Part shown: positions 1-6,007 of the stretch, in pieces | Layout: each line of letters begins with the position of its first letter | Position numbering within the stretch: the first letter of the stretch is position 1 | IMG/VR virus record: IMGVR_UViG_638341196_000006 | Length of the DNA stretch: 19,782 bases | Reading direction: 5' to 3' (one strand) | Source: a virus | Lineage: Duplodnaviria; Heunggongvirae; Uroviricota; Caudoviricetes | Program-made: the position numbers and the translations under genes | Notes under the pieces: model-generated | What the model was told of the DNA's origin: nothing | Database searches by the model: none | What the model saw: the letters and a program-made list of their open reading frames with translations, nothing else

Positions 1-263
1 ATGAAAAAAAGAAATTTTAGCGCAGAGTTTAAACGCGAATCCGCTCAACTGGTTGTTGACCAGAAATACACGGTGGCAGATGCCGCCAAAGCTATGGATG
101 TTGGCCTTTCCACAATGACAAGATGGGTCAAACAACTGCGTGATGAGCGTCAGGGCAAAACACCAAAAGCCTCTCCGATAACACCAGAACAAATCGAAAT
201 ACGTAAGCTGAGGAAAAAGCTACAACGCATTGAAATGGAGAATGAAATATTAAAAAAGGCTAC
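1..263 (+). pseudogene. IS911 orfA, 5' portion, interrupted after the KKAT codon by IS30
   Basis: Reading frame from ATG at 1 continues into IS30 end sequence at 264; the native orfA continuation (gcgctcttgatgtcagactccctgaacagttctcgataa) resumes at about 1486. Confidence 0.8.
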
Positions 264-1483
264 TGTAGATTCAATCTGTCAATGCAACACCCCTTTCAAT
301 TATCTCTTTCGGTGTTTTGAACTTCAGTGTCTTTCTCGGTCTGTTGTTTAGCTGAGCAGCAACCAGATCTAGTTCATGTTGAGTATATTGGGCAAGACAT
401 GTCTTTTTAGGAAAGTACTGCCGAATTAGCCCATTTGTGTTCTCATTTGTTCCCCGCTGCCAAGGACTCTGAGGATCGCAGAAGTAAACTTTAACGCCGG
501 TGCTGACAGTAAATTCTAGATGTCTGGCCAGTTCCATTCCTCTGTCCCATGTCAGTGATTTTCTGAGTTCTGACGGTAAACTCAGGAATTTGTCGGTAAG
601 AGCCTGATTTACTGAGACAGAATCTTTGCCCCTGAGTCTAAGGATGATCGTATAACGTGATTTTCGGTCTACAAGTGTGGCTATATGAGAGTTTTTTGTA
701 CCTGAGACTAAATCGCCCTCCCAATGCCCCAGAGAGCGTCTGTTATCGATATTTCGGGAACGTTCGTGAATTGGTGTTCCGTTCACTATGTTAATCGTAC
801 CTCTTTCGCCTTTGCGGGTATGACGCCTGCCATGGCGAAGGCTATGCGACCGTCGCAGATGCTGTATATTCAGGTGGTGTAGCGCTTCACGGCTACGAAA
901 GTACAGCGTTTTATAAATTGTCTCAGGTGATATTCGCAGCGTTTTTTGACGTGGTTTTGTTCGCCTTAACCATCCTGATATTTGCTCTGGAGACCATTTC
1001 ATCTCCAGCTTTTCCAGAACAAGCTTTCGCAATGGTAAATTTTGATCCAGTAAGCACGGTTTTGGCCTTTTCGCCATTCTGTTGGCTCGGTTATTAGCAT
1101 CAACAGCTTTGTAATAGCGTCTGCCCCGATTACGCTGAACTTCACGTGAGATCGTCGAAGGACTGCGATTCAGCGCAGTAGCTATCGCACGAATGCTCAT
1201 TTTGGCTGACAAACCAGCTCGTATCTCCTCGCGCTCAGACAGTGTCAGGTGAGCTACAGCCCGCTTACGCTCATGGGGTTTTATGCCGCCAGTATCCCTT
1301 AACATAGTGAAGATCGTTCCGGGTTTTGAACCCAGGATATTCGCTATTTCACTGAAGCCTGTTCCGTTCTTCCATAGTTCAAAAACAGAGGCTTTTTCCT
1401 CTGCTGTAAATGTTCGTCTCATCAAAAAACCTCCGCAACCCCATGTTTTCACATAACTGTTGCGTTGACCAATTGAATCTACA
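264..1483 (-). mobile_element. IS30 copy 1 (about 1220 bp), inserted in IS911 with flanking AC duplication (262-263 and 1484-1485)
   Basis: Ends tgtagattcaatctgtcaatgcaac (264-) and ...ttgcgttgaccaattgaatctaca (-1483) are IS30 terminal inverted repeats; encodes a complete IS30 transposase. Confidence 0.9.
271..1422 (-). CDS. insI: IS30 transposase (383 aa)
   Basis: Protein [31 protein letters not shown]...[12 protein letters not shown] is identical to the copy at 4772-5923; the 437-aa track ORF is an upstream in-frame extension. Confidence 0.9.
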
Positions 1484-1551
1484 ACCGCGCTCTTGATGTC
1501 AGACTCCCTGAACAGTTCTCGATAATCGGGAAACTCAGAGCGCATTATCCT

Positions 1552-2391
1552 GTGGTCACACTCTGCCAAGTGTTCGGGGTTCATCGCAGCAGCTACAGAT
1601 ACTGGAAAAACCGTCCTGAAAAACCAGACGGCAGACGGGCTGTATTACGCAGTCAGGTACTTGAGCTACATGGCATCAGCCATGGTTCGGCCGGAGCAAG
1701 AAGCATCGCCACAATGGCAACCCGGAGAGGCTACCAGATGGGACGCTGGCTTGCTGGCAGGCTCATGAAAGAGCTGGGGCTGGTCAGTTGTCAGCAGCCG
1801 ACTCACCGGTATAAACGTGGTGGTCATGAACATGTTGCTATCCCTAACTACCTTGAAAGGCAGTTCGCCGTGACCGAGCCAAATCAGGTGTGGTGCGGTG
1901 ATGTGACCTATATCTGGACGGGTAAGCGCTGGGCGTACCTCGCCGTTGTTCTCGACCTGTTCGCAAGAAAACCAGTGGGCTGGGCCATGTCGTTCTCGCC
2001 GGACAGCAGGCTCACCATGAAAGCGCTGGAAATGGCATGGGAAACCCGTGGTAAGCCCGGCGGGGTGATGTTCCACAGCGATCAGGGCAGTCATTATACG
2101 AGCAGGCAGTTCCGGCAGTTATTGTGGCGATACCAGATCAGACAGAGTATGAGCCGGCGCGGAAACTGCTGGGATAACAGCCCAATGGAACGCTTCTTCA
2201 GGAGTCTGAAGAACGAATGGATGCTGGTGGTGGGTTACGTAAGCTTCAGCGAGGCAGCTCACGCCATAACGGACTATATCGTTGGATATTACAGCGCACT
2301 AAGACCGCACGAATATAACGGTGGGTTACCCCCAAACGAATCGGAAAATCGATACTGGAAAAACTCTAACTCGGTGGCCAGTTTTTGTTGA
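1552..2391 (+). CDS. IS911 orfB (DDE integrase-type transposase domain; normally made as an OrfAB frameshift fusion)
   Basis: Product contains the rve-type motifs ...WCGDVTYIW...[10 protein letters not shown]...RRGNCWDN; lies downstream of the orfA remainder in the -1 frame. Confidence 0.8.
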
Positions 2392-2611
2392 CCACTTCAT
2401 TTTGATATTTTCCAGCACCTCCGCCTTGGAGCTACCGGAGCAGTTGCGCAGGTCATCCGCACCATACAGAGGCGCTGGCATAATGGGAGCCTTATTTTCA
2501 GTAATCAGAAAGGAGGGTAATCGTTCTGGCTGTAACCATAATCATCTGCATGATTCTGGCTTACGTTTTTGCTGCGATTGTCTTTGTCTTTGAGAGTGGA
2601 AACCATATTTG

Positions 2612-4382: not shown

Positions 4383-4446
4383 TGAGGTAGCCTGAGTTTA
4401 ACGGACACTCCTTCCTGAAATAGAATGGCATCAGAAGGAGCTAATA

Positions 4447-4709
4447 ATGAGCAGAAAAACCCAACGTTACTCTAAAGAGTTCAAAGCCGAAGCTGTCAGA
4501 ACGGTTCTTGAAAATCAACTTTCGATCAGTGAAGGCGCTTCCCGATTATCCCTTCCTGAAGGCACTTTAGGACAATGGGTTACCGCCGCCAGAAAAGGAC
4601 TCGGTACTCCTGGTTCCCGCACGGTGGCTGAACTGGAATCTGAAATTCTGCAACTGCGTAAGGCGTTAAATGAAGCTCGCCTTGAGCGAGATATATTAAA
4701 AAAAGCAAC
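4447..4709 (+). pseudogene. IS600 orfA, interrupted after the KKAT codon by IS30
   Basis: Frame runs from ATG 4447 into the IS30 inverted repeat at 4710; native continuation (agcgtattttgcacaggagtcgctgaaaaatacgcgttaa) resumes at 5933. Confidence 0.8.
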
Positions 4710-5930
4710 TGTAGATTCAATTGGTCAACGCAACAGTTATGTGAAAACATGGGGTTGCGGAGGTTTTTTGAATGAGACGAACATTTACAGCAGAGGAAAA
4801 AGCCTCTGTTTTTGAACTATGGAAGAACGGAACAGGCTTCAGTGAAATAGCGAATATCCTGGGTTCAAAACCCGGAACGATCTTCACTATGTTAAGGGAT
4901 ACTGGCGGCATAAAACCCCATGAGCGTAAGCGGGCTGTAGCTCACCTGACACTGTCTGAGCGCGAGGAGATACGAGCTGGTTTGTCAGCCAAAATGAGCA
5001 TTCGTGCGATAGCTACTGCGCTGAATCGCAGTCCTTCGACGATCTCACGTGAAGTTCAGCGTAATCGGGGCAGACGCTATTACAAAGCTGTTGATGCTAA
5101 TAACCGAGCCAACAGAATGGCGAAAAGGCCAAAACCGTGCTTACTGGATCAAAATTTACCATTGCGAAAGCTTGTTCTGGAAAAGCTGGAGATGAAATGG
5201 TCTCCAGAGCAAATATCAGGATGGTTAAGGCGAACAAAACCACGTCAAAAAACGCTGCGAATATCACCTGAGACAATTTATAAAACGCTGTACTTTCGTA
5301 GCCGTGAAGCGCTACACCACCTGAATATACAGCATCTGCGACGGTCGCATAGCCTTCGCCATGGCAGGCGTCATACCCGCAAAGGCGAAAGAGGTACGAT
5401 TAACATAGTGAACGGAACACCAATTCACGAACGTTCCCGAAATATCGATAACAGACGCTCTCTGGGGCATTGGGAGGGCGATTTAGTCTCAGGTACAAAA
5501 AACTCTCATATAGCCACACTTGTAGACCGAAAATCACGTTATACGATCATCCTTAGACTCAGGGGCAAAGATTCTGTCTCAGTAAATCAGGCTCTTACCG
5601 ACAAATTCCTGAGTTTACCGTCAGAACTCAGAAAATCACTGACATGGGACAGAGGAATGGAACTGGCCAGACATCTAGAATTTACTGTCAGCACCGGCGT
5701 TAAAGTTTACTTCTGCGATCCTCAGAGTCCTTGGCAGCGGGGAACAAATGAGAACACAAATGGGCTAATTCGGCAGTACTTTCCTAAAAAGACATGTCTT
5801 GCCCAATATACTCAACATGAACTAGATCTGGTTGCTGCTCAGCTAAACAACAGACCGAGAAAGACACTGAAGTTCAAAACACCGAAAGAGATAATTGAAA
5901 GGGGTGTTGCATTGACAGATTGAATCTACA
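4710..5930 (+). mobile_element. IS30 copy 2 (1221 bp), inserted in IS600 with flanking AC duplication (4708-4709 and 5931-5932)
   Basis: Starts tgtagattcaattggtcaacgcaacag, ends ...gttgcattgacagattgaatctaca. Confidence 0.9.
4772..5923 (+). CDS. insI: IS30 transposase (383 aa)
   Basis: Same protein as 271-1422; SD ggagg 8 nt upstream of ATG. Confidence 0.9.
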   Translation: MRRTFTAEEKASVFELWKNGTGFSEIANILGSKPGTIFTMLRDTGGIKPHERKRAVAHLTLSEREEIRAGLSAKMSIRAIATALNRSPSTISREVQRNRGRRYYKAVDANNRANRMAKRPKPCLLDQNLPLRKLVLEKLEMKWSPEQISGWLRRTKPRQKTLRISPETIYKTLYFRSREALHHLNIQHLRRSHSLRHGRRHTRKGERGTINIVNGTPIHERSRNIDNRRSLGHWEGDLVSGTKNSHIATLVDRKSRYTIILRLRGKDSVSVNQALTDKFLSLPSELRKSLTWDRGMELARHLEFTVSTGVKVYFCDPQSPWQRGTNENTNGLIRQYFPKKTCLAQYTQHELDLVAAQLNNRPRKTLKFKTPKEIIERGVALTD

Positions 5931-6007
5931 ACAGCGTATTTTGCACAGGAGTCGCTGAAAAATACGCGTTAATCGAACAATGGCGACAACAATTTCCCAT
6001 TGAAGCG

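Follow-up and report, generated by a model that had tools for sequence, protein, structure and literature searches.

Two copies of IS30 interrupt two different IS3-family elements, IS911 and IS600, at the homologous nucleotide of orfA, and we consider it very probable that they are two separate, ordinary hot-spot insertions. Both occupy the best target positions of the window (the whole 19,782-nt stretch of DNA analysed here), a placement that is far beyond chance.

Anatomy of the two insertions

Each copy has the features of the IS30 family: a length of about 1,221 bp, 26-bp imperfect terminal inverted repeats starting TGTAGATTCAAT with both ends present, a 2-bp target duplication (AC/AC at each copy), and one intact 383-aa transposase ORF with an N-terminal HTH and a DDE (rve) core (in copy 2, Pfam HTH_38 with E=1.6e-23 and rve in the same ORF). 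The junctions and repeats confirm where a sequence-only reading had placed both insertions, along with the AC duplication that it had reported around each (Table 1). Its description of the copies as identical needs correction: they differ by a single indel, with no mismatches, copy 1 being one A short at IS30 nt 62, in the spacer that separates the Shine-Dalgarno sequence from the ATG. Compared with IS30A of Escherichia coli K-12, copy 1 has three differences and copy 2 two mismatches. In another genome, L157, which carries the same locus at 99.97% identity over 12.8 kb, the IS30 at the copy 1 position is 1,221 bp long.

Table 1. Coordinates of the IS30 copies, their host elements and target sites in the window
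Feature	Position	Strand	Details
IS911 left part	1..263	+	orfA codons 1-87 + 2 nt; IS911 nt 73-335; HTH_Tnp_1 (Pfam)
IS30 target A-run half, IS911	251..263	+	T AAAAAAG GCT AC; other half 1484-1496
AC target duplication, IS911, left copy	262..263
IS30 copy 1	264-1483	minus	1220 bp; IRR end at 264, IRL at 1483; inverted-repeat pair
IS30 copy 1 transposase ORF	271-1422		sequence identical to copy 2 ORF
AC target duplication, IS911, right copy	1484..1485
IS911 right part	1486..2399	+	last 13 orfA codons, orfB (rve), right inverted repeat ending TTGACCACTTCA
IS600 left part	4383..4709	+	327 bp; IRL starts TGAGGTAGCC; HTH_Tnp_1; IS600 annotation
IS600 orfA, left portion	4447-4709		codons 1-87 + 2 nt
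IS30 target A-run half, IS600	4697..4709	+	T AAAAAAA GCA AC; other half 5931-5943
AC target duplication, IS600, left copy	4708..4709
IS30 copy 2	4710-5930	plus	1221 bp; IRL at 4710, IRR end at 5930
IS30 copy 2 transposase ORF	4772-5923		383 aa; HTH_38 + rve
AC target duplication, IS600, right copy	5931..5932
IS600 right part	5933..6869	+	orfA tail, orfB (6008-6826), right inverted repeat ending GTACACCTCA

Both hosts are recognizable as IS3-family elements from an orfA with HTH_Tnp_1, an A6-7G slippery window, terminal inverted repeats, and an orfB whose rve core lies in the -1 frame; 100% matches carry the annotation of IS911 and IS600 family transposases. The IS911 right part, with domains rve, rve_3 and HTH_21 on 1552-2391, matches at 100% an entry annotated 'IS3-like element IS911 family transposase'; the left end of IS911 lies 72 bp before the window start (in L157, the IS911 IRL is found 72 nt upstream). 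The IS600::IS30 composite is 2487 bp long (4383..6869), which fits the sum of IS600 (1264 bp), IS30 copy 2 (1221 bp) and the duplicated 2 bp, and contig L192 carries the same 2487-bp composite. The genomic context of the window is an ipaH-bearing prophage remnant.

In both elements the breakpoint lies 263 nt past the orfA ATG, after ...ILKKA plus 2 nt. The sequence-only reading had put the insertion directly after the Thr codon; the cut instead falls inside that codon, AC|C in IS911 and AC|A in IS600, so codon 88 begins with the duplicated AC. That reading was right that IS30 is oppositely oriented relative to its two hosts and that each insertion separates orfA from orfB. The IRR end adjoins the left part of IS911 and the IRL the left part of IS600, and the slippery site, like orfA, is parted from orfB. 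A scan of the IS30 junctions for hybrid promoters found none meeting its criteria.

The two copies are mutually inverted and bracket 3.2 kb, and the outer flanking dinucleotides are both AC, an arrangement that could suggest insertion of a composite IS30-X-IS30 transposon, or IR-targeting (the second IS30 target class), in place of hot-spot targeting. The flank structure rules out both and leaves such an origin a negligible probability: no IS30 end adjoins another IS30 end, all four flanks being IS911 or IS600; each copy has its own AC duplication; the flanks of each copy rejoin as an intact IS911 or IS600 reading frame; and the outer flanks, IS911-left and IS600-right, make no continuous target. 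Gene conversion between IS911 and IS600 was also rejected, on the grounds that the sequence common to their flanks is only about 20 nt long and that IS30 is not oriented alike in the two.

The target sequence

Target sites were scored with a weight matrix whose training data excluded every IS30 site in an IS3 element and comprised either 56 non-hot-spot half-sites or 31 chosen more strictly; the hot-spot match is therefore to an empirical matrix of IS30 flanks, not to the curated published consensus. Empirically, each half reads T-n-A-A-n-A-A-n-G-C-n-[N-N], and the central dinucleotide is common to both halves, so that the matrix consensus, T-AA-AA-GC-[NN], forms a 24-bp imperfect palindrome. 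By this matrix, the two occupied sites rank 1 and 2 of 17,313 window positions, and the frameshift window TTAAAAAAGGC is an ideal IS30 half-site. The A-run half in IS911, which contains the frameshift heptamer A AAA AAG at 252-258, scores 9.9 (top 0.006% of background half-sites) and the full site 15.7-16.3; the corresponding scores in IS600 are 10.4 and 16.1-17.4. The second half-sites are merely average (5.9 in IS911 and 7.0 in IS600). Each insertion thus sits, by the empirical matrix, at the centre of an imperfect palindrome of ~24 bp, and the same nucleotide is reused in both orientations, as befits the hot-spot class of IS30 targets.

In lambda, the same matrix gives the experimentally defined hot spot LHS (33290) a rank of 23-28 among 48,478 positions. 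IS3-family frameshift windows score 15.7-17.4, compared with 9.1-9.5 for LHS and a lambda maximum of 12.9. Sites of such quality are scarce: across 1.42 Mb, only 13 unoccupied sites score at least 13.5, and four of these are IS3-family frameshift windows. In IS3 itself the top-scoring site is the homologous frameshift window, where one real insertion was found (contig L139). IS2 and IS150 have A6G windows too, but these have low scores and neither element turned up as a host; 'IS3 family' here should thus be read as an IS911/IS600/IS3-like subset.

Recurrence across hosts

Several lines of evidence from a survey of about 200 IS30 copies or ends, drawn from genome, metagenome and viral contigs in three public collections, support a general hot spot. 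The survey was seeded on the exact 27-nt IRL, and E. coli and Shigella dominate it. First, the frameshift-window half-site is present at 217 of 295 IS30 flanks (73%), a share that overstates the number of events because the copies are not phylogenetically independent. Each of these flanks stops either 2 nt beyond OrfA residue 87 or at the complementary half-site, and only about six flanks fall elsewhere in IS3-family sequence. Simple, duplication-flanked insertions in such frameshift windows account for 43 of the 97 complete IS30 copies.

Second, the 217 flanks form 23 clusters that represent at least 11 IS3-family hosts with OrfA identities of 31-100%. Four hosts have received insertions in both orientations: IS911, IS600, one that is ISEhe3-like and one more; for the two beyond IS911 and IS600, PGAP gives no label more specific than 'IS3 family transposase'. 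Across hosts spanning that whole range of OrfA identity the IS30 copies are about 99.9% identical, and IS30 variants of 90-94% identity use the same sites. The strong IS30 hot spot in IS3-family elements that the sequence-only reading had proposed is thus upheld by the flank counts, the number of hosts, the use of both orientations and the matrix prediction; the scatter of insertions throughout IS3-family elements that it had named as contrary evidence did not appear when IS30 occupancy was surveyed. Its claim of independent events at one site also stands, given both orientations, the diverged hosts and a K-12 copy of IS911 (IS911A::IS30A) in which IS30 has the opposite orientation. Among candidate empty sites, we found no orthologous empty copies of the IS911 and IS600 of the window itself; the candidate E. 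coli loci, H3 and H24, are different insertion contexts.

IS911::IS30 and IS600::IS30 composites are very widespread, each of the four junction types occurring in 850 to 1,284 of 5,426 complete E. coli genomes, and this could in principle reflect one ancient insertion, per host or overall, whose composite spread by descent, horizontal transfer or mobilization in trans, with no hot spot involved. One viral contig indeed holds several 2487-bp IS600::IS30 composites, one of them with the 3-bp duplication typical of IS600, so that the composites have probably spread to some extent as a unit or by descent, which inflates the counts. As the sole explanation, however, a single insertion is already contradicted, and we regard it as very improbable: four hosts were hit in both orientations and at least 11 diverged hosts at the homologous nucleotide, IS30 is about 99.9% identical across hosts that share just 31-55% OrfA identity, and the position is predicted by a matrix derived from unrelated sites.

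It is equally improbable, in our judgement, that IS30 inserts more or less at random and appears enriched because harmless insertions in insertion sequences survive. Insertions in IS elements are plausibly neutral, and survivorship probably adds to the 73% flank share. It cannot, however, give nucleotide-exact placement, with ~217 flanks at the frameshift window against the handful elsewhere in IS3-family sequence, and it leaves unexplained both the absence of other recurrent host IS families and the motif shared with non-IS sites.

Proposed mechanism

IS30 transposes by a copy-out-paste-in route through a circular IR-IR junction; the target that its transposase picks is long and close to palindromic, the two strands are cut at its centre with a 2-bp stagger, and repair after insertion yields a 2-bp duplication (PMC9333248). 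In elements like IS911 and IS600, the programmed -1 frameshift window, TTA-AAA-AAG-GCN-AC (Leu-Lys-Lys-Ala-Thr), fits every informative position of one half of the empirical target, and the codons that follow it (C/A-GCG-...TT) supply an average second half, with the site centre 5 nt downstream of the slippery heptamer; in this register the Thr codon opens with the duplicated AC. On our account of hot-spot insertion, the position is the same in IS911 and IS600 because the family frameshift signal matches the preferred target of IS30 nearly perfectly, and neither orientation of IS30 is favoured because the target is quasi-symmetric.

The predicted consequence for the host is an orfA that lacks its last 13 codons and a slippery site cut off from orfB. 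No OrfAB transposase would then be made, and the host copy would be dead as an autonomous element, although both of its ends stay intact. IS30 copies in different IS3 elements may in turn serve as recombination substrates and yield flanks that are chimeric, as in K-12 IS30D. Frameshift-window sites probably dominate the surviving copies because the frameshift window is under functional constraint, mobile DNA carries it many times over, and insertion there is probably harmless to the cell.

A more far-reaching possibility, which we hold only tentatively and think somewhat unlikely, is that IS30 is effectively a specialized parasite of IS3-family elements, and that the match of target and frameshift window is no coincidence, the long palindromic preference of IS30 being tuned to that -1 signal. 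A host element could not mutate the signal without losing its transposase, and immutability of the target combined with a tuned preference would place most natural IS30 copies in IS3-family elements. If so, IS30 would spare host genes, ride on multi-copy mobile DNA and disable a competing element, and recombination between embedded copies would drive chimerization of IS3 elements.

Significance

The insertions in the window are themselves routine, their junctions being found in about one in five complete E. coli genomes. Of moderate interest to those who work on insertion sequences is the hot spot: about three-quarters of sampled IS30 flanks are an IS3-family frameshift window, in many diverged hosts, in both orientations and with diverged IS30 variants as well. 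It constitutes a natural super-hot-spot for IS30 that is predicted to outperform the classical LHS of lambda. The frequent annotation of IS911 and IS600 as broken 'orfA / IS30 / orfB' fragments is explained by hot-spot insertion of IS30, and the presence of the hot spot in both hosts accounts for chimeric IS911-IS30-IS600 structures such as K-12 IS30D. For annotation, a simple rule follows: a truncated IS3-family orfA that ends ...ILKKA plus 2 nt beside TGTAGATTCAAT marks an IS30 hot-spot insertion.

Comparison with known systems

The IS911/IS600::IS30 arrangement is already known, as the K-12 reference annotation contains the exact junctions. In IS911A::IS30A of the CP4-6 prophage, the IS911 junction is identical to that of the window (AAAAAAGGCTAC|IS30|ACCGCGCT), left side included, and the IS911 site is the same, with IS30A in the orientation opposite to that of the IS911 copy in the window. 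In IS911B-IS30D-IS600 (KpLE2), the IS600 junction is the same (AAAAAAAGCAAC|IRL), and the adjoining 327-bp IS600 fragment is the same as the IS600 left part of the window. The 2-bp AC flanks are alike throughout. The flanks of IS30D are chimeric, with IS911-left on one side and inverted IS600-left on the other, whereas the window has two unrearranged insertions of the parental type; its prophage-remnant setting is also unlike the CP4-6 and KpLE2 loci of K-12. The sequence-only reading had mentioned an IS30-in-IS911 arrangement in K-12, correctly according to the K-12 sequence and the literature, in which IS30A interrupts IS911 (PMC9333248). The shared position of IS30D in IS911 receives no more than the word 'interesting' in a 2026 paper from Hungary (PMC13463583), and our literature searches for IS3 frameshift windows as the dominant natural target of IS30 gave only anecdotal reports (PMC9333248, PMC13463583, PMC4924310).

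The lambda LHS and the IS3-family frameshift windows share a long, near-palindromic target with a central 2-bp insertion point that leaves a 2-bp duplication; our matrix spans 24 bp, and by its scores LHS is among the best 0.06% of lambda positions. Hot-spot targeting by IS30 was reportedly described by Olasz et al. in 1998, with a 24-bp palindromic consensus. The coordinates of LHS, the repeated use of exactly one position and the 2-bp stagger are on record (PMC9333248). Unlike LHS, the IS3-family frameshift windows are multi-copy, mobile, functionally constrained and higher-scoring. A parallel in distribution is offered by IS1397 and IS621, which insert in REP elements (PMC1525189): there, too, a transposase with a strong preference is concentrated in repeated sequence and largely avoids host genes. 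IS30 differs from them in its transposase family and in the nature of the repeat: its target is a frameshift signal belonging to another family of transposable elements, and insertion there would thus disable a competing element.

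Two IS30 insertions at one position of IS911 and IS600

The window carries two IS30 elements, copy 1 in IS911 orfA and copy 2 in IS600 orfA, which a repeat scan finds mutually inverted (see table). In both host genes the break lies 263 nt after the ATG, 5 nt beyond the slippery heptamer, and excising IS30 with one AC rejoins the IS911 and IS600 reading frames, IS600 then reading ...ERDILKKATAYFAQES.... A sequence-only reading had placed the insertions at the homologous orfA codon, each with an AC duplication and with IS30 oppositely oriented relative to its two hosts; break points, duplications and flanks agree with this, except that the cut falls inside the Thr codon (AC/C in IS911, AC/A in IS600), not directly after it. 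In L157, an IMG/VR contig of the same locus (99.97% identity over 12.8 kb), the left end of IS911 precedes window position 1 by 72 nt. IS600 plus IS30 totals 2487 bp, or 1264 + 1221 + 2, where 1264 bp is the length of IS600. This IS600 has no flanking 3-bp duplication (AAT versus TTG), which suggests a later rearrangement at one end.

The same reading had called the two IS30 copies identical, which holds but for a one-base indel: in a global alignment, copy 1 (1220 bp) lacks a single A present in copy 2 (1221 bp), at IS30 nt 62. The missing base (window 1422-1423) shortens the SD-ATG interval (GGAGGTTTTTTGATG versus GGAGGTTTTTTGAATG) and leaves the ORF intact. Copy 1 in L157 has the full 1221 bp, so the deletion reflects a sequencing error or else a mutation private to this sequence. 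IS30A of Escherichia coli K-12 differs from both window copies at 2-3 positions.

Features of the IS30 insertions and surrounding region (window coordinates)
Feature	Position	Strand	Remarks
IS911 left part	1-263		first 263 nt of IS911 orfA
Truncated OrfA ORF (IS911)	1-351		
AC duplication (IS911)	262-263 / 1484-1485		
IS30 copy 1	264-1483	-	IRR (right inverted repeat) end at 264, IRL (left) at 1483; sequence reading and repeat scan
IS911 right part	1484-2399		IS911 resumes at 1484, ends at 2399
IS600 left part	4383-4709		flank/K-12 comparison
Truncated OrfA ORF (IS600)	4447-4815		
AC duplication (IS600)	4708-4709 / 5931-5932		
IS30 copy 2	4710-5930	+	sequence reading and repeat scan
IS30 copy 2 ORF	4772-5923	+	383 aa; HTH_38 and rve core
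IS600 right part	5931-6869		flank/K-12 comparison
IS1	about 12,790-13,560		InsA 12837-13112, InsB 13031-13534
Lambda-type integrase; adjoining IpaH effector gene	15586-16659; 17222-18985		IpaH: LRR and NEL E3 ligase

Survey of IS30 flanks

Three collections were scanned for the exact 27-nt IRL, giving 30 loci in species-representative genomes, at least 120 in metagenome contigs and 40 in viral contigs. Among the matches listed, to which all counts of flanks and complete copies refer, 200 IS30 copies or ends yielded 295 flanks of at least 22 nt. A tblastn search with the IS911 and IS600 proteins of the window places the end of 190 flanks 2 nt past OrfA residue 87 or at the complementary half (OrfB residues 7-12), and 25 more have the same sequence, mostly too short for a protein match; a wider IS3/IS2/IS150 query panel adds both halves of an insertion into IS3 itself (L139), where InsE is 98% identical. 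Insertions are not scattered over IS3-family elements: 217 of the 295 listed flanks carry a half-site of the frameshift window, compared with about six in IS3-family sequence at other positions.

The hot-spot flanks form 23 clusters drawn from at least 11 host elements, with OrfA 31-100% identical to that of IS911 or IS600. Both orientations occur in each of IS911, IS600, an ISEhe3-like element and a fourth element (...GGGACATATTAAAAAAAGCCGC/GCGGCGTACTTCGC...), and IS30 is about 99.9% identical across very different hosts among the matches listed. One ancestral insertion that then spread cannot explain this pattern, since it leaves unaccounted for both the two orientations and the many diverged hosts, as well as near-identical IS30 in hosts with only a third of residues in common; the two insertions in the window are best read as independent events, as had been proposed.

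IS30 variants 90-94% identical to the E. coli element also lie in IS3-family frameshift windows, in Buttiauxella (L013), Rahnella (L022) and an unplaced metagenome contig (L039), so that, judged from these sequences, the target preference seems conserved across the lineage. Copies in Yersinia aleksiciae (L014, L017 and L024; 93.6% identical) were not classed as hot-spot sites, though L017 shows a weak IS911-OrfA-like match on one flank. In three viral contigs (L158, L168 and L180) the IRL flank, (AATAGA)n...ATATTAAAACAGACCAC, runs from a hexanucleotide tandem array into a degenerate IS911-like window.

Both flanks could be classed for 97 complete copies among the matches listed: in 43 the insertion is simple, within such a window and with matching duplication; another 16 are simple insertions at other sites; and about 38 are flanked by two different elements, which means rearrangement after insertion. 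The mixed flanks (L002, K-12 4507125-4509801; L034, L108, L132, L160, L166 and others) join, for example, IS911-left to inverted IS600-left, as in K-12 IS30D, or to IS600-right. IS30 copies in IS3-family windows appear to be substrates for recombination or deletion yielding chimeric IS3-family remnants. The window itself holds two unrearranged parental types, inverted and 3.2 kb apart, so that 1484-4709 is invertible. A viral/prophage contig, L192 (IMGVR_UViG_2869924733_000007), has two inverted 2487-bp IS600::IS30 composites (2920-5406 and 9376-11863), one of them between a 3-bp TCC duplication, together with additional IS30 copies; either IS600 transposase moved the composite as one unit, or IS30 entered several IS600 copies in separate events.

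A target motif defined outside IS3-family elements

A position matrix was built from 56 unique half-sites outside the hot-spot class and without an A6G run. Its motif, T(-13) n A A n A A n G C n [N N], ends in the duplicated pair, and two halves with a common central dinucleotide make 24 bp, reportedly also the length of the palindromic IS30 consensus of Olasz et al. in 1998. No informative position is mismatched in either the IS911 half (TAAAAAAGGCTAC) or the IS600 half (TAAAAAAAGCAAC). Once both IS30 copies are excised, positions 4708 and 262 score 17.4 and 15.7, the top two of 17,313 positions (next best 12.25; mean -7.9, sd 5.3), in keeping with the proposed hot spot inside IS3-family elements; a stricter matrix (31 half-sites with no IS3-family evidence on either flank and no A5+G run) gives the occupied sites 16.3 and 16.1 versus 12.5. 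The third-best predicted target, at 19255 (TAAATCTCGTC[AT]TGCGTTCAACA; 12.3-12.5), is unoccupied.

LHS, the experimentally defined IS30 hot spot in lambda, has its insertion at 33290/33291 (PMC9333248); it ranks 23rd to 28th of 48,478 lambda positions, at the correct nucleotide, with both matrices, and no lambda position attains the IS3-family scores. The top site of K-12 IS3 is the homologous window (10.9), and the A6G windows of IS2 and IS150 score poorly. Only 13 unoccupied sites in 1.42 Mb of fetched sequence score at least 13.5, four of them IS3-family windows.

Insertion at these windows is nucleotide-exact, orientation-neutral and recurrent, with a 2-bp duplication, and the quasi-palindromic motif was defined independently of IS3 elements. 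Random insertion followed by survivorship cannot explain placement exact to the nucleotide, or the motif common to non-IS sites. IR-targeting, the second IS30 target class (next to IS30 ends), and a composite-transposon origin are excluded by the flanks. Composite spread, survivorship and recombination between embedded IS30 copies probably act atop the hot spot, inflating raw counts. From an IR-IR junction, IS30 enters hot-spot sequences through cuts 2 bp apart (PMC9333248). Here the transposase would recognise the TTAAAAAAGGC half-site, and the host element would lose OrfAB production because orfB is now separated from its slippery site. The dominance of these sites among surviving copies may arise because the frameshift window is constrained, the hosts are multi-copy and mobile, and the insertions are harmless. 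In a biased, non-independent sample and with an empirical matrix, the frameshift window of IS911/IS600/IS3-like elements would be IS30's dominant natural target, a role that we did not find described in the literature.

Prophage context and prevalence

The window represents a degraded prophage, lambdoid and of the Shigella/enteroinvasive E. coli type, encoding YqaJ exonuclease, a helicase, a CI-like repressor, HicB, Rha antirepressor, IS1, two ORF6N antirepressor paralogues, integrase and IpaH. The integrase beside the IpaH effector gene marks the region as an ipaH prophage remnant. The RecT gene, without its N-terminal part, now stops at IS600 (region 3777-4382; IS600 far side 6870), and a 159-aa ORF (3777-4256) matches RecT profile positions 133-177 only. 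IS1 lies between the Rha gene and the two ORF6N genes, and direct repeat D1 (131 nt, 81%; 13770-13900 and 14872-15002) reflects the latter pair. The whole window is present in no E. coli genome of the collection.

Occupancy of IS911 and IS600, a survey that the sequence-only reading had proposed, was measured in 5,426 complete E. coli genomes with 140-nt queries spanning the empty site or junction (at least 80% coverage). The empty IS911 site occurs in 2,448 genomes, IS911-left joined to the IRR end (window orientation) in 1,216 and to IRL (K-12 IS911A orientation) in 1,037; for IS600 the empty site occurs in 1,638, IS600-left joined to IRL (window orientation) in 1,284 and to the IRR end in 850. 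These counts include shared ancestry and so measure prevalence, not the number of events. The fourth host element (...ATATTAAAAAAAGCCGC/GGCGTACTTCGC), which is abundant in E. coli HS, has matches in 2,914 genomes, of which only 185 show it unbroken across the site; most genomes may carry it in interrupted or truncated form.

Comparison with E. coli K-12 and published cases

An IS30-in-IS911 arrangement had been mentioned for K-12, and in MG1655 IS30A indeed splits IS911A at exactly this nucleotide (...AAAAAAGGCTAC/IRL...IRR/ACCGCGCT), an interruption also reported in print (PMC9333248). The IS30 orientation is opposite to that in the window, which by itself makes two independent events in IS911. 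K-12 IS30D has on one side IS911B-left, with the junction and orientation of the window, and on the other an inverted 327-bp IS600-left fragment, again with the window's junction; by these flanks it is a chimera of exactly the two insertion types present in the window; recombination or deletion between two IS30 copies, one lodged in the IS911 site and the other in that of IS600, could account for it. In another strain IS30D interrupts IS911 at the same position (334 bp), the left part there being ISEhe3 (PMC13463583), and Shigella flexneri 1c has an IS30-interrupted IS911 (PMC4924310). The observation is real and the inference first drawn from it right. As an object the arrangement is ordinary and known already: the hot-spot specificity of IS30 is established, and the same junctions stand in the K-12 reference genome.
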